A stretch of 64,000 bases of DNA, taken from NCBI RefSeq assembly GCF_051903065.1, contig NZ_CP178438.1; one strand, written 5' to 3'. This document shows, in pieces, positions 12,599 to 19,284 of this stretch (the first letter of the stretch is position 1; each line of letters begins with the position of its first letter). This stretch comes from Escherichia coli (GTDB taxonomy: Bacteria; Pseudomonadota; Gammaproteobacteria; Enterobacterales; Enterobacteriaceae). The notes under the pieces were generated by a model. That model had not been told where the DNA came from and made no database searches. It saw nothing but the letters and a program-made list of their open reading frames with translations. Made by a program: the position numbers and the translations under genes.

Positions 12599-13042
12599 TT
12601 ATTGCGTTGGTTGTTGTTTGACGACATTAATCATCCACGGTACGCCAAATTTATCGGTGACTTTGCCAAAGCCATGCGCCCAGAAAGTTTCCTGCCAGGC
12701 CATTTCGATTTTTCCGTTAGCTGCAAGGTTATCAAACCAGCGTTTTCCTTCTTCGACCTGTTGCGAATCGAGCACCAGCGTAAAGCCGGAGTAGCTGGCT
12801 TTTCCTGACGGCATGGCATCGCTCATCATGATGTCGCTTCCGGCAATACGCACGTTGGCATGAGCGATGGCAGTATCGGGAAATTGCATTCCGGAAGGGC
12901 AGTTCTCGGCGCTGTCCTGCGCTGATTTTGGCATTTCGCCGAAGCTGATTTTATAGAGCAGTTCAGCGCCCAACGTACGTTGATAATAGGCAATCGCGTC
13001 GGAGCAGTTACCGGCAAAAGAGAGGTAGGGACTTAACGGCAT
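12599..13042 (-). CDS. yjdN: VOC/glyoxalase-fold protein YjdN (PhnB)
   Basis: 147 aa; position between phnC and yjdM. Confidence 0.85.
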   Translation of the reverse strand: MPLSPYLSFAGNCSDAIAYYQRTLGAELLYKISFGEMPKSAQDSAENCPSGMQFPDTAIAHANVRIAGSDIMMSDAMPSGKASYSGFTLVLDSQQVEEGKRWFDNLAANGKIEMAWQETFWAHGFGKVTDKFGVPWMINVVKQQPTQ

Positions 13043-13104
13043 GATGGTGACCTCAGTTAAGAGAAGCCAGTTAAGTGTAGTTCGAAATTTATACAGATGA
13101 GAGG

Positions 13105-13665
<561 letters not shown>

Positions 13666-13676
13666 TCACAATACAA

Positions 13677-14012
13677 TCAGTTCTTTTTCACAAACTCAGA
13701 TTTCAGTTTCATCGGACCAAAACCGTCGATTTTGCAATCGATGTTATGGTCGCCTTCAACCAGGCGGATATTTTTCACTTTGGTGCCAATTTTCAGCATC
13801 GAAGAGCTACCTTTCACCTTCAGATCTTTAATGATGGTAACGCTGTCGCCGTCAGCCAGCAGATTGCCGTTAGCATCTTTAACGATCAGCTCGTCGCTTT
13901 CCTGTGCAGGTTCTGCGTCGTTCCATTCGTAGGCACATTCCGGGCAGATGTACATGCCGTTATCTTCGTAAGTGTATTCGGAGTTGCATTTTGGGCAGTG
14001 TGGTAATGACAT
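13677..14012 (-). CDS. yjdM: Zinc-ribbon protein YjdM (PhnA)
   Basis: 111 aa from [30 protein letters not shown]; two CxxC pairs; track ORF is a 5-prime extension into the BIME array. Confidence 0.9.
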
Positions 14013-14414
14013 GTGGATTTCCTCAAAAGTCAGCAGGGCAAAAGCGCCAAAAAACGGCAGATTGCCGAAAAAGGCCGCAATTATACACAAAATCCCTGAG
14101 TTTGTCGGGGGTACTGCTGATTTTAGACGACGATCGTTTTCATTTGAAAGAAAACGCAAAAAGAAAATAATCTTTTTGCCTCCATTTATTATTTAAGATA
14201 AGGTTAATGCTCTACTTGTTCTTTTTTTTTATTCACATGATATTTTTATCTTTCTGACGTTTTAAACGTATCGGAAGATGTTATTTATTCTAATAAAAAA
14301 CAACACTCTAAATATAAAATTATTTCTTGCAGTAATTATAAAAGCCGAAAACAGAACTCAAAAACAATCTGGCTAAATAAAAGTAATAAAATTTGCTTTA
14401 AGGAAGAATTTTCT

Positions 14415-16643
14415 ATGTACACACAGACCCTGTATGAGTTAAGTCAGGAGGCTGAACGGCTGTTACAGCTTTCTCGCCAACAGTTGCAGTTACTGGAAAA
14501 AATGCCTCTCTCTGTACCCGGAGACGATGCGCCACAACTGGCTTTACCCTGGAGTCAGCCTAATATCGCCGAGCGTCACGCGATGCTGAATAATGAGTTG
14601 CGTAAAATTTCCCGACTGGAAATGGTGCTGGCGATTGTCGGTACCATGAAAGCAGGGAAATCAACCACCATTAATGCCATTGTTGGTACGGAGGTACTGC
14701 CTAATCGCAATCGCCCAATGACTGCGCTGCCGACGCTTATTCGCCATACGCCCGGGCAAAAAGAACCGGTACTGCATTTTTCACATGTCGCACCAATCGA
14801 TTGTTTAATTCAAAAATTACAACAGCGCCTGCGTGATTGCGATATTAAGCATCTGACCGATGTGCTGGAAATAGATAAAGATATGCGTGCGCTTATGCAG
14901 CGGATCGAAAATGGCGTCGCTTTCGAAAAATATTATCTGGGTGCCCAGCCTATTTTTCATTGTCTGAAAAGTTTGAATGATTTAGTGCGACTGGCGAAGG
15001 CGCTGGACGTCGATTTTCCTTTTTCTGCTTACGCCGCCATTGAGCATATTCCCGTGATTGAAGTGGAGTTTGTCCATCTGGCGGGGCTGGAGAGTTATCC
15101 CGGTCAGTTGACGTTACTGGATACCCCCGGGCCAAATGAAGCCGGGCAACCGCATCTGCAAAAAATGCTTAACCAGCAGCTGGCTCGCGCCTCGGCGGTA
15201 CTGGCGGTGCTGGATTATACGCAACTGAAATCGATCTCCGATGAAGAGGTCCGTGAGGCGATTTTGGCGGTGGGGCAATCGGTGCCGCTGTATGTGCTGG
15301 TCAATAAGTTCGATCAACAGGATCGTAACAGTGACGACGCCGACCAGGTGCGGGCACTGATTTCCGGGACGCTGATGAAAGGCTGTATTACGCCACAGCA
15401 GATATTTCCGGTGTCGTCGATGTGGGGCTACCTGGCAAATCGGGCGCGCCATGAGTTAGCCAACAACGATAAGTTACCAGCGCCAGAGCAACAACGCTGG
15501 GTGGAAGATTTTGCCCATGCCGCGCTCGGCAGGCGCTGGCGTCATGCCGATCTGGCGGACCTCGAACATATTCGTCATGCTGCCGATCAGTTGTGGGAAG
15601 ATTCGCTGTTCGCCCAGCCAATTCAGGCGCTGCTTCATGCCGCTTACGCTAACGCCTCGTTGTATGCTCTGCGATCTGCCGCGCATAAACTGTTGAATTA
15701 TGCGCAGCAGGCGCGGGAATACCTGGATTTTCGTGCGCACGGGTTAAACGTCGCTTGTGAACAATTGCGGCAAAATATCCACCAGATCGAAGAAAGTTTG
15801 CAGCTATTGCAACTCAATCAGGCGCAGGTGAGCGGCGAGATTAAACATGAAATCGAGCTGGCCCTGACCTCCGCCAACCTCTTTCTGCGTCAACAGCAAG
15901 ATGCGCTGAATGCGCAGTTAGCCGCCTTGTTTCAGGATGATTCGGAGCCGTTAAGCGAGATTCGTACCCGCTGTGAGACACTGTTACAGACGGCGCAGAA
16001 CACCATCAGTCGCGACTTTACGCTGCGTTTTGCCGAGCTTGAATCCACCCTTTGCCGGGTGTTAACCGATGTTATTCGCCCCATTGAGCAACAAGTCAAA
16101 ATGGAATTGAGCGAGTCAGGGTTTCGTCCTGGGTTTCATTTTCCTGTTTTTCACGGCGTAGTTCCCCACTTCAACACTCGTCAGCTGTTCAGTGAAGTCA
16201 TTTCGCGCCAGGAAGCAACGGACGAGCAGAGCACGCGTTTAGGCGTTGTGCGTGAGACTTTTTCGCGCTGGTTGAATCAGCCTGACTGGGGACGGGGAAA
16301 TGAGAAATCCCCGACAGAAACGGTTGATTACAGTGTGTTGCAACGAGCATTAAGCGCAGAAGTCGATCTTTATTGCCAACAAATGGCTAAAGTTCTGGCA
16401 GAGCAGGTCGATGAATCTGTTACGGCAGGCATGAATACTTTTTTCGCTGAGTTCGCTTCATGTTTGACGGAATTACAGACGCGTTTACGCGAAAGTCTGG
16501 CTCTGCGTCAACAAAATGAATCGGTGGTCAGGCTGATGCAACAGCAATTGCAGCAGACTGTGATGACTCACGGCTGGATTTACACCGACGCTCAGCTGTT
16601 ACGCGATGATATTCAAACACTTTTCACGGCAGAACGATATTGA
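14415..16643 (+). CDS. crfC: Dynamin-like GTPase CrfC (YjdA)
   Basis: 742 aa; GTPase P-loop GTMKAGKST; long coiled-coil-like C-terminal half. Confidence 0.9.
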   Translation: MYTQTLYELSQEAERLLQLSRQQLQLLEKMPLSVPGDDAPQLALPWSQPNIAERHAMLNNELRKISRLEMVLAIVGTMKAGKSTTINAIVGTEVLPNRNRPMTALPTLIRHTPGQKEPVLHFSHVAPIDCLIQKLQQRLRDCDIKHLTDVLEIDKDMRALMQRIENGVAFEKYYLGAQPIFHCLKSLNDLVRLAKALDVDFPFSAYAAIEHIPVIEVEFVHLAGLESYPGQLTLLDTPGPNEAGQPHLQKMLNQQLARASAVLAVLDYTQLKSISDEEVREAILAVGQSVPLYVLVNKFDQQDRNSDDADQVRALISGTLMKGCITPQQIFPVSSMWGYLANRARHELANNDKLPAPEQQRWVEDFAHAALGRRWRHADLADLEHIRHAADQLWEDSLFAQPIQALLHAAYANASLYALRSAAHKLLNYAQQAREYLDFRAHGLNVACEQLRQNIHQIEESLQLLQLNQAQVSGEIKHEIELALTSANLFLRQQQDALNAQLAALFQDDSEPLSEIRTRCETLLQTAQNTISRDFTLRFAELESTLCRVLTDVIRPIEQQVKMELSESGFRPGFHFPVFHGVVPHFNTRQLFSEVISRQEATDEQSTRLGVVRETFSRWLNQPDWGRGNEKSPTETVDYSVLQRALSAEVDLYCQQMAKVLAEQVDESVTAGMNTFFAEFASCLTELQTRLRESLALRQQNESVVRLMQQQLQQTVMTHGWIYTDAQLLRDDIQTLFTAERY

Positions 16644-17518
16644 CCAAGACGTTACTGGACGGCCCCGGTCGCGTGCTGGAGTCGGTTTATCCCCGCTTTT
16701 TAGTGGATCTGGCGCAGGGCGATGATGCCCGCCTTCCACAAGCCCATCAGCAGCAGTTTCGTGAACGACTGATGCAGGAACTTCTTGCGCGCGTGCAGCT
16801 TCAGACATGGACGAACGGCGGGATGTTAAATGCGCCGCTTAGTCTGCGTCTGACATTGGTGGAAAAACTGGCGTCGATGCTGGATCCCGGTCATCTGGCA
16901 CTGACGCAGATCGCGCAGCATCTGGCGCTGCTGCAAAAAATGGATCACCGCCAGCACTCTGCTTTCCCGGAGCTCCCCCAGCAAATTGCCGCCTTGTATG
17001 AGTGGTTTTCAGCCCGTTGTCGCTGGAAGGAAAAGGCGTTAACGCAACGAGGCCTACTGGTGCAGGCGGGTGAACAGAGCGAGCAAATTTTTACCCGCTG
17101 GCGTGCTGGGGCGTATAACGCCTGGTCGTTGCCTGGGCGCTGTTTTATCGTTCTCGAAGAGTTGCGTTGGGGGGCATTTGGCGATGCCTGTCGTCTGGGA
17201 AGCCCGCAAGCGGTGGCGTTGTTGCTGGGTGATTTGCGCGTGAAAGCGACACAACATCTGGCAGAGAGTATCAATGCGGCCCCGACCACGCGTCACTATT
17301 ACCATCAGTGGTTTGCCTCTTCGACCGTTCCGACGGGCGGGGATCATGCTGATTTTTTAAGTTGGCTGGGAAAGTGGACCACGGCAGATAAACAACCCGT
17401 TTGCTGGTCAGTGACCCAACGCTGGCAAACTGTCGCGCTGGGGATGCCACGACTCTGTTCAGCGCAGCGTCTGGCGGGGGCAATGCTCGAGGAAATCTTC
17501 TCTGTAAATTTGGTGTAA
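16640..17518 (+). CDS. yjcZ: YjcZ, partner protein encoded immediately downstream of crfC
   Basis: 292 aa; start overlaps crfC stop by 4 nt, suggesting translational coupling. Confidence 0.85.
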   Translation: MTKTLLDGPGRVLESVYPRFLVDLAQGDDARLPQAHQQQFRERLMQELLARVQLQTWTNGGMLNAPLSLRLTLVEKLASMLDPGHLALTQIAQHLALLQKMDHRQHSAFPELPQQIAALYEWFSARCRWKEKALTQRGLLVQAGEQSEQIFTRWRAGAYNAWSLPGRCFIVLEELRWGAFGDACRLGSPQAVALLLGDLRVKATQHLAESINAAPTTRHYYHQWFASSTVPTGGDHADFLSWLGKWTTADKQPVCWSVTQRWQTVALGMPRLCSAQRLAGAMLEEIFSVNLV

Positions 17519-17781
17519 ATAATCAGTTACATCAATGAGTCCTAAACGAAATCCATGTGTGAAGTTGATCACAAATTTAAACGCTGGTAGGGTAAAAAGG
17601 TCATTAACTGCCCAATTCAGGCGTCAACTGGTTTGATTGTACATTCCTTAACCGGAGGGTGTAAGCAAACCCGCTACGCTTGTTACAGAGATTGCATCCT
17701 GCAATTCCCGCTCCCCTTTTGCGGCCGTCGCGCTGATTTTTCTGGCGTTTGCGGAAATGGGCCAACTCTGCGAGGAAAGCT

Positions 17782-19284
17782 ATGCTGAAAAGGAAAAAAG
17801 TAAAACCAATTACCCTTCGTGATGTCACCATTATTGATGACGGTAAACTGCGGAAAGCCATTACCGCAGCATCACTGGGTAATGCAATGGAATGGTTCGA
17901 TTTTGGTGTTTATGGTTTTGTTGCTTACGCATTAGGTAAAGTTTTTTTCCCGGGGGCTGACCCCAGCGTGCAGATGGTTGCTGCACTTGCCACGTTCTCC
18001 GTTCCCTTTCTGATTCGACCGCTTGGCGGACTCTTCTTTGGTATGTTGGGCGATAAATATGGTCGCCAGAAGATCCTCGCTATCACTATTGTGATTATGT
18101 CGATCAGTACGTTCTGTATTGGCTTAATACCGTCCTACGACACGATTGGTATTTGGGCACCGATTCTGCTGTTGATCTGTAAGATGGCACAAGGTTTCTC
18201 GGTCGGCGGTGAATATACCGGGGCGTCGATATTTGTTGCGGAATACTCCCCTGACCGTAAACGTGGCTTTATGGGCAGCTGGCTGGACTTCGGTTCTATT
18301 GCCGGGTTTGTGCTGGGTGCGGGCGTGGTGGTGTTAATTTCGACCATTGTCGGCGAAGCGAACTTCCTCGACTGGGGCTGGCGTATTCCGTTCTTTATTG
18401 CTCTGCCGTTAGGGATTATCGGGCTTTACCTGCGCCATGCGCTGGAAGAAACTCCGGCGTTCCAGCAGCATGTTGATAAACTGGAACAGGGCGACCGCGA
18501 AGGTTTGCAGGATGGCCCGAAAGTCTCGTTTAAAGAGATTGCCACTAAATACTGGCGCAGCCTGTTGACATGTATTGGTCTGGTAATTGCCACCAACGTG
18601 ACTTACTACATGTTGCTGACCTATATGCCGAGTTATTTGTCGCATAACCTGCATTACTCCGAAGACCACGGGGTGCTGATTATTATCGCCATTATGATCG
18701 GTATGCTGTTTGTCCAGCCGGTGATGGGCTTGCTGAGTGACCGTTTTGGCCGTCGTCCGTTTGTGCTACTTGGTAGTGTTGCACTGTTTGTGTTGGCGAT
18801 CCCGGCGTTTATTCTGATTAACAGTAACGTCATCGGCCTGATTTTTGCCGGGTTACTGATGCTGGCGGTGATCCTTAACTGCTTTACGGGCGTTATGGCT
18901 TCTACCTTGCCAGCGATGTTCCCGACGCATATCCGTTACAGCGCGCTGGCGGCGGCATTTAATATTTCGGTGCTGGTTGCCGGTCTGACGCCAACATTGG
19001 CGGCCTGGCTGGTCGAAAGCTCGCAGAATCTGATGATGCCAGCCTATTACCTGATGGTAGTGGCGGTGGTTGGTTTAATCACCGGCGTAACCATGAAAGA
19101 GACGGCAAATCGTCCGTTGAAAGGTGCAACACCGGCGGCGTCAGATATACAGGAAGCGAAGGAAATTCTCGTCGAGCATTACGATAATATCGAGCAGAAA
19201 ATCGATGATATTGACCACGAGATTGCCGATTTGCAGGCGAAACGTACCCGCCTGGTGCAGCAACATCCGCGAATTGATGAATAA
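17782..19284 (+). CDS. proP: Proline/glycine betaine:H+ symporter ProP (MFS)
   Basis: 500 aa from MLKRKKVKPITLRDVTIIDDGK; MFS topology with C-terminal coiled-coil tail (IDDIDHEIADLQAKR). Confidence 0.93.
   Translation: MLKRKKVKPITLRDVTIIDDGKLRKAITAASLGNAMEWFDFGVYGFVAYALGKVFFPGADPSVQMVAALATFSVPFLIRPLGGLFFGMLGDKYGRQKILAITIVIMSISTFCIGLIPSYDTIGIWAPILLLICKMAQGFSVGGEYTGASIFVAEYSPDRKRGFMGSWLDFGSIAGFVLGAGVVVLISTIVGEANFLDWGWRIPFFIALPLGIIGLYLRHALEETPAFQQHVDKLEQGDREGLQDGPKVSFKEIATKYWRSLLTCIGLVIATNVTYYMLLTYMPSYLSHNLHYSEDHGVLIIIAIMIGMLFVQPVMGLLSDRFGRRPFVLLGSVALFVLAIPAFILINSNVIGLIFAGLLMLAVILNCFTGVMASTLPAMFPTHIRYSALAAAFNISVLVAGLTPTLAAWLVESSQNLMMPAYYLMVVAVVGLITGVTMKETANRPLKGATPAASDIQEAKEILVEHYDNIEQKIDDIDHEIADLQAKRTRLVQQHPRIDE

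Follow-up and report, generated by a model that had tools for sequence, protein, structure and literature searches.

The closest described counterpart of the locus examined here is the rdcA-rdcB pair of Escherichia coli K-12 (Pfiffer, Sarenko, Possling and Hengge 2019, PMC6510439). Two-hybrid assays showed that RdcA binds RdcB, and RdcA was also shown to bind DgcE through the MASE1 domain of the latter. Activation of DgcE required both proteins, deletion of either gene phenocopying a dgcE knockout. GTPase activity was reported for RdcA, which was found to be soluble, and substitution T103D at its G2 threonine (T103) rendered the protein inactive in vivo. According to this literature, a soluble dynamin-like GTPase (RdcA) and a small, all-alpha, non-GTPase partner (RdcB) together convert DgcE to its active state in a step that needs GTP hydrolysis by RdcA, and the resulting rise in c-di-GMP induces CsgD, curli and cellulose. 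Low c-di-GMP has also been described for transposon mutants of dgcE, rdcA and rdcB (PMC13031359).

Three further groups of systems bear comparison with this pair. Bacterial dynamin-like proteins (Nostoc BDLP, 2J68; Campylobacter DLP1/DLP2, 5OWV; LeoA/LeoBC; DynA) share with RdcA, also named CrfC or YjdA, an N-terminal dynamin-type G domain, a long, putatively helical C-terminal half and an adjoining partner gene. The solved members, however, resemble CrfC in sequence only around the P-loop (E 2e-6 to 5e-3), its partner is not a second dynamin, and CrfC is reported to be soluble, with a signaling enzyme rather than a membrane as its target. The FliA promoter of motA, termed a 'duon' by Fitzgerald et al., lies inside the upstream gene flhC, drives a downstream mRNA and constrains the codons that it overlaps, as does a FliA site within yjdA. 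Finally, dynamin/YjcZ-like/patatin operons of genomic islands and metagenomic contigs contain homologous genes that are ordered and overlap as in crfC-yjcZ, but are only about 30% identical, carry an extra gene for a patatin phospholipase, are uncharacterized and are not represented in PADLOC.

Identity and arrangement of the locus

The window, that is, the whole 64 kb stretch of DNA that was analyzed, is 100% identical to one E. coli chromosome, and the locus is the already characterized E. coli rdcA (crfC/yjdA)-rdcB (yjcZ) operon. From the open reading frames of the window, crfC occupies positions 14415-16643 (+ strand; 742 aa, ATG start) and yjcZ positions 16640-17518 (+ strand; 292 aa, TTG start, as also annotated in K-12), confirming the CrfC length and the 4-nt overlap that had been claimed in an earlier note on this DNA. 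Compared with K-12, where the RefSeq names of the pair are rdcA and rdcB, the locus, gene order and TTG start are the same and lie at corresponding positions, and the differences are at strain level only (a T-run of 9 here and of 7 in K-12, and a few substitutions). The locus was found, annotated as crfC/rdcB, in 5,400 of 5,426 complete genomes. Among 80 genome loci encoding YjcZ, crfC was directly 5' of yjcZ in every case, and a divergent phnA/yjdM homologue was present in 76, being absent only where a contig end cut the locus. In the window this neighbor is yjdM (phnA; 13677-14012, - strand; RefSeq yjdM, 111 aa), whose real ATG is at 14012, while proP lies 3' of yjcZ at the chromosomal locus and a patatin gene is not found there.

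The first observation made on this DNA re-describes a named and experimentally characterized operon and therefore opens no new question. The RdcA-RdcB system is already known, and its expression provides a modest new angle; new here are the variants of the gene overlap, the missing Shine-Dalgarno sequence of yjcZ, the conservation of a sigma-28 site and the link to patatin operons. Taken as a whole, it is very probable that the locus encodes the RdcA-RdcB pair activating DgcE, with rdcB fed by two routes and one of its promoters under selection at synonymous sites.

CrfC and YjcZ proteins

CrfC matched the NCBIfam equivalog NF007368 over residues 1-742 with 1590 bits, passing the curated cut-off of 1146 bits, and matched Pfam Dynamin_N (3e-18) with a score of 66.8 against a cut-off of 27 bits. 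Motifs G1 (GTMKAGKS), G3 (DTPG) and G4 (NKFD) were located at residues 76, 236 and 297, respectively. By the G-domain criteria (G1 GxxxxGKS/T, G3 DxxG, G4 N/TKxD), the sequence places CrfC in the dynamin superfamily, and the earlier description of the protein as dynamin-like agrees with both the Dynamin_N match and the three motifs.

The same description had been extended to YjcZ, the two genes being called a GTPase pair, and this part did not stand. YjcZ matched PF13990 over model positions 1-272 of 272 (482.8 bits, above the gathering score) and is all-alpha; a search for G motifs yielded neither a P-loop nor NKxD, and the protein matched no GTPase family. A single DxxG-pattern match, DGPG at residue 7, was rejected as a G3 motif. 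Nor is the role of YjcZ poorly defined, as had been stated: it has been known since 2019 as RdcB, a co-activator of DgcE, and is so named in RefSeq. The N-terminus of YjcZ is conserved from residue 1 onwards, and the most conserved segment, residues 253-277 (PVCWSVTQRWQTVALGMPRLCSA; 17396-17470, + strand), modeled with low confidence in the monomer, is proposed as a candidate partner-binding motif. A prediction of the CrfC-YjcZ complex, in which the proteins were fused via a 25-residue linker and a paired 12-sequence alignment was used, gave an AF2 model that was poor overall and uninformative (pTM 0.36, pLDDT about 30 for the G domain). In this model CrfC residues 400-505, 513-567 and 639-743 were helical with pLDDT 70-87, and the change in pLDDT of the conserved YjcZ segment from about 35-50 to about 40-60 is, given the quality of the model, likewise uninformative.

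Region upstream of crfC

The 255 bp preceding crfC (14160-14414) have a GC content of 23.5%, against 51.4% for the whole window, and are essentially the lowest-GC stretch of this length in the 64 kb, the minimum being 23.1% at 14158 and only 0.02% of windows being equally low. They contain a T9 homopolymer (14222-14230, + strand), the longest in the window, and the AT-rich upstream region with a T-run that had been noticed earlier was thus confirmed. The run measures 7 T in K-12 and most strains and 8 or 9 in others, and lies in an Escherichia-specific segment that could not be aligned outside the genus. No evidence was found for a functional role of the T-run; phase variation was considered and rejected, as its length varies between 7 and 9 among strains, yet is tied to no promoter element.

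The boundary at 14160 is an artefact of the ORF finder, which extended the yjdM/phnA reading frame from a TTG to 14159. Counted from the yjdM ATG, the true yjdM-crfC intergenic region is 402 bp with 31% GC, and its first ~100-150 bp comprise a conserved yjdM promoter and leader, including a sigma-70-like promoter (CCGACA-17-TATAAT; 14080-14108, - strand) in a block conserved across genera. Closer to crfC, the conserved non-coding block GTAATTATAAAAGCCGAAAA (14332-14351, + strand) is a candidate crfC promoter or operator; AGCCG within it (14343-14347) and TGGCT (14370-14374) form a weak 5-bp inverted repeat. A conserved crfC leader, GGCTAAATAAAAGTAATAAAATTTGCTTTAAGGAA (14371-14405, + strand), carries at its 3' end the Shine-Dalgarno sequence AAGGAA (14400-14405; dG -6.1 kcal/mol). 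The conserved block upstream of crfC matches neither a canonical sigma-70 nor a canonical sigma-28 site. The only sigma-70 match on the + strand, at 14144-14171, was rejected as a crfC promoter and is Escherichia-specific. The best sigma-28 score in 14013-14414, obtained with a position weight matrix (PWM), was only 5.0 bits, in agreement with a published statement that a sigma-28 promoter upstream of crfC had been mispredicted. When the crfC leader was folded as an alignment of 28 loci, no consensus structure emerged (-1.4 kcal/mol) and compensatory pairs were absent, a hand-drawn 5-bp stem being only 72% paired, and an Rfam search of 12900-17900 returned only REP325/naRNA4 copies, which lie outside crfC-yjcZ.

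Association of crfC-yjcZ with H-NS has been recorded in two genome-wide datasets, and the genes are up-regulated 2.6-fold by SlyA (PMC5797941). The suggestion that the upstream region is typical of silenced or tightly regulated genes fits these data as well as the AT-richness, but a single silenced source of transcription does not, as yjcZ has a promoter of its own (below).

Stop/start junction and possible translational coupling

The nucleotides TTGA at 16640-16643 (+ strand) are common to both genes, the junction reading ...CGA TAT TGA with the yjcZ TTG start lying over the crfC TGA stop. Across the window and the 80 loci, the overlap was 4 nt in 74 cases (70 ATGA and 4 TTGA); two loci (L076 and L077) have an ATGA overlap too, one codon upstream of the assumed start, and the other junctions were a 1-nt overlap in one locus and a 2-nt gap in four. 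TTGA with a TTG start was seen in Escherichia only, and ATGA in most genera. No Shine-Dalgarno sequence was detected for yjcZ, the dG being -2.8 kcal/mol here and -2.4 kcal/mol as the median across loci, compared with -2.2 kcal/mol for the in-gene background and -6.1 kcal/mol for crfC.

Overlaps of 4 nt occur frequently in operons and are unremarkable alone. The present one becomes meaningful because it is conserved across genera and, together with the missing Shine-Dalgarno sequence of yjcZ, it makes translational coupling of crfC and yjcZ plausible at the sequence level. One route to RdcB, suggested by these features, would be a bicistronic mRNA that begins within the AT-rich DNA associated with H-NS on the 5' side of crfC. 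Lacking a Shine-Dalgarno sequence, rdcB would be translated from this mRNA by termination-reinitiation at the conserved ATGA/TTGA overlap. No start-occluding structure was found in the junction RNA (z +0.75 and -0.68), and the folds of the crfC/yjcZ junction and of the inferred sigma-28 leader were no more stable than those of shuffled sequence.

Sigma-28 promoter within crfC

An intragenic sigma-28 (FliA) promoter of yjcZ, TAAAGTTC-N11-GTCGATGA, is present at 16388-16415 (+ strand), where it exactly matches the published site and is identical to the K-12 sequence. It runs from the last base of codon 658 of crfC through codon 667, with 225 nt separating its end from the start of yjcZ, and agrees with the TAAAGTTT-N11-GCCGATAA-type motif in 7/8 and 6/8 positions; the transcript would start near 16421-16424. 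With a PWM derived from 24 FliA sites other than this one, the site scored 16.0 bits, the best value in the 64 kb (training sites, 8.8-29.4). Published data include a FliA ChIP-seq site inside crfC (FAT score 19), a genomic SELEX peak of the RpoF holoenzyme at the same coordinate and a FliA-dependent lacZ fusion, by which the yjdA site was found to be an active promoter (Fitzgerald et al.). In published RNA-seq, deletion of fliA took yjcZ from 52 to 1 and crfC from 111 to 11, though crfC has no FliA site upstream. By this second route, published and conserved here, rdcB is transcribed from its own sigma-28 promoter in crfC codons 658-667, which places RdcB, though not full-length RdcA, directly in the flagellar regulon. 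The sigma-28 transcript lacks the crfC start, and yjcZ must therefore be initiated there in some way other than coupling.

Fitzgerald et al. regarded flhC as the only broadly conserved intragenic FliA promoter and mentioned the yjdA site only as active, whereas the present comparison found the latter conserved across Citrobacter, Enterobacter, Kosakonia and other genera. Of 76 non-redundant loci, 61 had a site of at least 10 bits in this position, and 15 lacked it. It might be supposed that the motif is kept only through conservation of the encoded protein (K-A-L..Q-V-D), the promoter being an E. coli accident of no selective value; the residues are indeed well conserved, and most intragenic FliA sites are non-conserved and probably non-functional (Fitzgerald et al.). 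However, synonymous recodings of the same peptide averaged 0.1 bits against 13.5 bits observed (median p 2e-4), and at codons 659, 660, 665 and 666 third bases were kept in 79% of loci, compared with 19% on average for control quartets, none of which (0/343) equaled them. Codon 658 retained its third-base T although its residue varies (R, L, A, G, C, Y), the fifteen motif-negative loci encode this peptide by different codons, and codon 656 (CAA) and codons 669-670 co-vary with the presence of the motif though they lie outside the PWM. As the division into motif-positive and motif-negative loci rests on the motif itself, only the all-loci and flanking-position tests are non-circular. Conservation through the protein was considered very unlikely. 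The sigma-28 promoter would instead be maintained by selection on crfC synonymous sites and, for this reason, be a 'duon', providing a clean example of a promoter conserved via the synonymous sites of the upstream gene.

Function and origin of the pair

The earlier note had proposed an obligate two-protein module, and the full model to which this leads, an obligately coupled pair of dynamin-like GTPases with one tightly silenced upstream promoter as the only source, accounts for the conserved 4-nt overlap without a Shine-Dalgarno sequence, the AT-rich, H-NS-associated upstream region and the strict synteny. CrfC and YjcZ do form a functional pair, and their sequence makes coupling plausible. 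Obligate coupling, however, is unsupported because yjcZ has its own FliA promoter inside crfC, kept by selection. Against the model also stand the absence of G motifs from YjcZ and the fall of yjcZ RNA to 1 on fliA deletion, where crfC remains at 11. Of independent expression and lack of interaction, which together were to count against the module, only the former applies, as yjcZ is transcribed independently through FliA, yet its product interacts with CrfC. The model as a whole was therefore judged unlikely. A main role in chromosome biology, in which CrfC would bind the clamp and act as a nucleoid partition factor, with YjcZ as an accessory and DgcE control as a secondary function, was judged about as unlikely. 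In its favor, the literature contains an alternative role for CrfC, at the replication clamp (Ozaki 2013, as discussed in PMC6510439), the NCBIfam family is named 'clamp-binding protein CrfC', and nucleoid-pole localization has been described (PMC6374313). Against it, growth rate was unchanged in a yjdA knockout, clamp binding was GTP-independent, much of the evidence came from plasmid expression, and the DgcE phenotype required both proteins and GTPase activity (Pfiffer et al., PMC6510439), while an unbiased screen yielded rdcA and rdcB together with dgcE (PMC13031359).

A last alternative concerns the distant YjcZ-family genes, which sit between a CrfC-like dynamin gene (its product shares 32% identity with CrfC across 717 aa; E 1e-95) and a patatin gene, mostly with 4-nt overlaps, and whose E. 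coli island copies are found close to defense systems (PMC12922286). The chromosomal pair might then be left over from, or related to, a three-gene membrane-acting or defense system, still acting on membranes or phage, and the weak matches of CrfC to LeoBC and LeoA in PADLOC (only E 1e-5 and 3e-5, about 22 bits) point the same way. This is highly improbable: patatin is not encoded at the chromosomal locus, where yjcZ is followed by proP; a PADLOC v2 search (Eleos/LeoA-LeoBC and others) gave no significant system match for CrfC or YjcZ, YjcZ matching nothing at all; and RdcA is reported to be soluble, with a defined signaling target (PMC6510439). For the DgcE-activating pair, a joint reading is offered tentatively, as somewhat short of an even chance when its three parts are taken as one claim: that the promoter is an ancient duon under selection in at least 12 enterobacterial genera, that RdcB is flagellar-gated and that RdcAB has been domesticated. 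Under this reading, RdcB, and not RdcA, would be gated by the flagellar regulon, possibly be limiting and license DgcE after the motile phase, and RdcAB would be a patatin-less offshoot of the uncharacterized island system. The separate wiring of RdcB supply to the flagellar cascade that is suggested here bears on the timing of the motility-to-biofilm transition in E. coli, and the patatin-operon link hints at the origin of the RdcAB signaling module. The dynamin/YjcZ-like/patatin operons themselves constitute an uncharacterized three-gene system that deserves a study of its own.

The Known RdcA-RdcB System and Its Genes

The crfC-yjcZ system is already known and named, and the sole new elements of the present analysis are the conservation of a promoter inside crfC and a set of patatin-linked relatives. 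The sequence observations of the earlier note proved correct, its interpretation partly so. YjdA (CrfC) and YjcZ were renamed RdcA and RdcB by Pfiffer et al. in 2019 (PMC6510439), in whose work deletion of either gene reproduced the phenotype of a dgcE deletion (CsgD, curli, macrocolony matrix and c-di-GMP), two-hybrid assays showed RdcA to self-associate and to bind both RdcB and the MASE1 domain of the diguanylate cyclase DgcE, and a GTPase-dead RdcA variant (T103D) was unable to activate DgcE. The name CrfC goes back to a role in nucleoid partition, through clamp binding, that had been proposed for the protein and that the same authors consider secondary (PMC6510439). A genome-wide FRET sorting screen published in 2026 recovered low-c-di-GMP mutants in dgcE, rdcA and rdcB, and also in ynjH (PMC13031359).

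A 4.2-kb query around crfC-yjcZ was 100% identical to one RefSeq genome, and the window is E. coli chromosome; the region was found in 5,400 of 5,426 complete E. coli genomes (at least 80% coverage of the query), across which the gene order was annotated as yjdM, crfC, rdcB, proP. The proposed reading frames of crfC (14415-16643, 742 aa) and yjcZ (16640-17518, 292 aa) were confirmed. CrfC matched the NCBIfam equivalog 'clamp-binding protein CrfC' (1590 bits) and Pfam Dynamin_N (3e-18), with the G1, G3 and G4 motifs read as GTMKAGKS (residue 76), DTPG (residue 236) and NKFD (residue 297). The earlier note had described the two products as a GTPase pair, which was wrong because YjcZ carries neither a P-loop nor NKxD, matched no GTPase family (its sole family match being Pfam PF13990, 483 bits), and has a single DxxG-pattern match (DGPG, residue 7) that is not a G3 motif. 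The predicted structure of YjcZ was all-alpha (pLDDT 73), with no convincing relative by fold or sequence among solved structures. Residues 253-277 (17396-17470) form the most conserved stretch of the family, yet received the lowest confidence in the AlphaFold monomer, a pattern that would be expected of a segment folding on a partner. At 770-789 aa, the CrfC orthologues of other genera exceed the E. coli protein by about 40 residues. In some E. coli assemblies, single proteins of 438-442 aa (P0020-P0022) contain both Dynamin_N and YjcZ domains, and appear to have arisen through a deletion that left the 5' part of crfC fused to the final ~70% of yjcZ.

A Conserved Sigma-28 Promoter inside crfC

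A FliA (sigma-28) site with the motif TAAAGTTCTGGCAGAGCAGGTCGATGAA was mapped inside yjdA by Fitzgerald, Bonocora and Wade, who found that it drives yjcZ, the RNA of which dropped from 52 to 1 when fliA was deleted (PMC4183435). FliA-dependent activity of a lacZ fusion of the site was reported in a preprint by Fitzgerald et al., and genomic SELEX with the RpoF holoenzyme gave a peak at the same coordinate (PMC5493296). In the window, an exact copy of the motif lies at 16388-16415, its end 225 nt 5' of the yjcZ start; a weight matrix derived from 24 other FliA sites gave it 16.0 bits, the best value in the 64 kb, and gave no more than 5 bits to anything in 14013-14414. With an active FliA promoter inside crfC, yjcZ has a transcript of its own, independent of crfC. 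Such independence is one of the two grounds that the earlier note named against an obligate module; the second, a lack of interaction with CrfC, does not apply, since RdcA binds RdcB. The RNA of crfC itself also fell about tenfold (111 to 11) in the fliA deletion (PMC4183435); no FliA site lies upstream of the gene, and the internal promoter spans only its last ~220 nt.

Conservation of the site was assessed in 76 non-redundant loci. In most loci it was the best-scoring site in crfC and lay at an identical distance to yjcZ; 61 of the 76 reached at least 10 bits (median 13.5 bits), whereas random synonymous recodings of its ten codons averaged 0.1 bits (median p 2e-4). The third bases of codons 659, 660, 665 and 666 were jointly kept in 79% of all 76 loci, a level reached by none of 343 control quartets of equal amino-acid conservation (mean 19%, maximum 66%). 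The amino acid at codon 658 varies (R, L, A, G, C or Y), yet its third base stays T, the first base of the -35 element. In the 15 loci that lack the motif, K-A-L..Q-V-D is likewise encoded, but by other codons (CTG AAG GCG CTG .. GTG GAC). Outside the matrix, codon 656 was CAA in all 61 motif-positive loci vs 4 of the 15 motif-negative ones, with similar co-variation at codons 669-670, and in the motif-positive loci the 20-codon window from codon 654 had the lowest third-position entropy in crfC (0.71 vs a mean of 1.22 bits). From these sequence comparisons it was concluded that the intragenic sigma-28 promoter is under purifying selection. It is then a second example of the kind of case represented by the flhC/motA 'duon' of Fitzgerald et al., in whose preprint the yjdA site was named only as an active promoter and flhC was given as the one broadly conserved case.

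The crfC/yjcZ Junction

The 4-nt overlap described earlier was present, and since the junction reads CGA TAT TGA / TTG ACC AAG, the two genes share the four bases TTGA, and yjcZ begins with TTG at 16640. When junctions were scored in the window and 80 further loci, 70 had a 4-nt ATGA overlap, four (the window and three other Escherichia loci) a 4-nt TTGA overlap, two (L076 and L077) an ATGA overlap one codon 5' of the initially assumed start and one a 1-nt overlap, and in four TAA was followed after a 2-nt gap by ATG. The TTG start was confined to Escherichia (the window and loci L001, L002 and L007), with ATG in other genera, and the N-terminus of YjcZ was conserved from residue 1; the Escherichia TTG is thus best read, on this comparison, as a genus-specific derivative of an ancestral ATG. 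Predicted anti-Shine-Dalgarno pairing upstream of yjcZ (median -2.4 kcal/mol) equalled the in-gene background (-2.2) and was far weaker than that of crfC (-6.1). A conserved overlap without a Shine-Dalgarno sequence is what genes coupled by termination-reinitiation usually show, and such coupling is what we infer for crfC-yjcZ. Folding of the junction RNA gave no unusual structure. RIL-seq chimeras of the sRNA GlnZ with rdcA-rdcB were described in a preprint, with predicted pairing at or beside the rdcB ribosome-binding site (window 16600-16660), which would mean that rdcB translation is regulated separately from that of rdcA.

In the mechanism proposed, the GTPase RdcA and its partner RdcB activate DgcE via the MASE1 domain, as established by others, and rdcB is served by its own sigma-28 promoter, which is published and to which conservation is added here. 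On the long transcript, rdcB would be read through reinitiation at the overlap, while the sigma-28 route would let RdcB supply track the flagellar cascade. For the short transcript, one idea is that ribosomes may start at an in-frame AUG, crfC codon 673 (16431), and then reinitiate at the junction with yjcZ.

The Region Upstream of crfC

The AT-richness noted for 14160-14414 was borne out (23.5% GC vs 51.4% for the window, with essentially no other 255-bp stretch of the 64 kb richer in AT), as was its T-run, a T9 longer than any other homopolymer in the 64 kb. The left limit of 14160 did not stand, as it reflects a TTG-extended reading of the divergent yjdM; the true yjdM start is 14012, so the crfC-yjdM intergenic region is 402 bp, its yjdM-proximal part containing a conserved yjdM promoter. 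The T-run varies among E. coli strains (7, 8 or 9 T), and its segment could not be aligned outside Escherichia. Reading the AT-rich DNA as silenced agrees with published data, in which crfC-yjcZ was H-NS-associated in two genome-wide datasets and rose 2.6-fold upon SlyA over-production (PMC5797941). Two non-coding blocks (14332-14351 and 14371-14405) were kept across at least 15 genera amid divergent intergenic DNA, and crfC codons 2-11 (14418-14447) lie within the first 11 codons, which show the strongest synonymous constraint of the gene. Neither a canonical promoter nor an Rfam family nor a consensus RNA fold accounted for the blocks or these codons, and an inverted repeat (AGCCG-N22-TGGCT, 5 bp) was only weakly supported. 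Between yjdN and yjdM, five tandem full copies and one partial copy of REP325/naRNA4 (Rfam RF02564, 86-111 bits) occupy 13107-13659 on the minus strand, over which the ORF finder called many spurious ORFs.

Synteny and Patatin-Linked Relatives

A scan of one genome per species yielded 80 YjcZ-encoding loci, in Escherichia, Citrobacter, Enterobacter, Kosakonia, Phytobacter, Leclercia, Lelliottia, Pluralibacter, Yokenella, Trabulsiella, Superficieibacter, Atlantibacter, Franconibacter and others. A crfC homologue lay immediately 5' of yjcZ in all 80, and a divergent yjdM homologue upstream in 76. The family is small, with only 262 members found by profile search of 1.84 billion representative proteins. 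Six distant full-length members were inspected on metagenomic contigs (L082, L083, L085, L086, L088 and L089). In one (L085, 6001-7599), DUF3944 and a Ubiq_cyt_C_chap-like region are fused to the YjcZ domain and the patatin gene is next, the dynamin gene being absent. Each of the other five has a gene on its upstream side and a patatin phospholipase gene on its downstream side, and most of the junctions are 4-nt overlaps; where readable, the upstream gene encoded a full-length CrfC homologue, one matching Dynamin_N and sharing 32% identity with CrfC over 717 aa (E 1e-95) and another 45% identical over 319 aa. None of these proteins was recognised by PADLOC. In E. coli, a 2026 paper places operons of dynamin, YjcZ-like protein and patatin on genomic islands, in the neighbourhood of defence systems (PMC12922286). 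Unlike these three-gene operons, chromosomal rdcAB has no patatin gene, and the distant operons therefore indicate that the pairing of dynamin and YjcZ predates the patatin-less chromosomal rdcAB.
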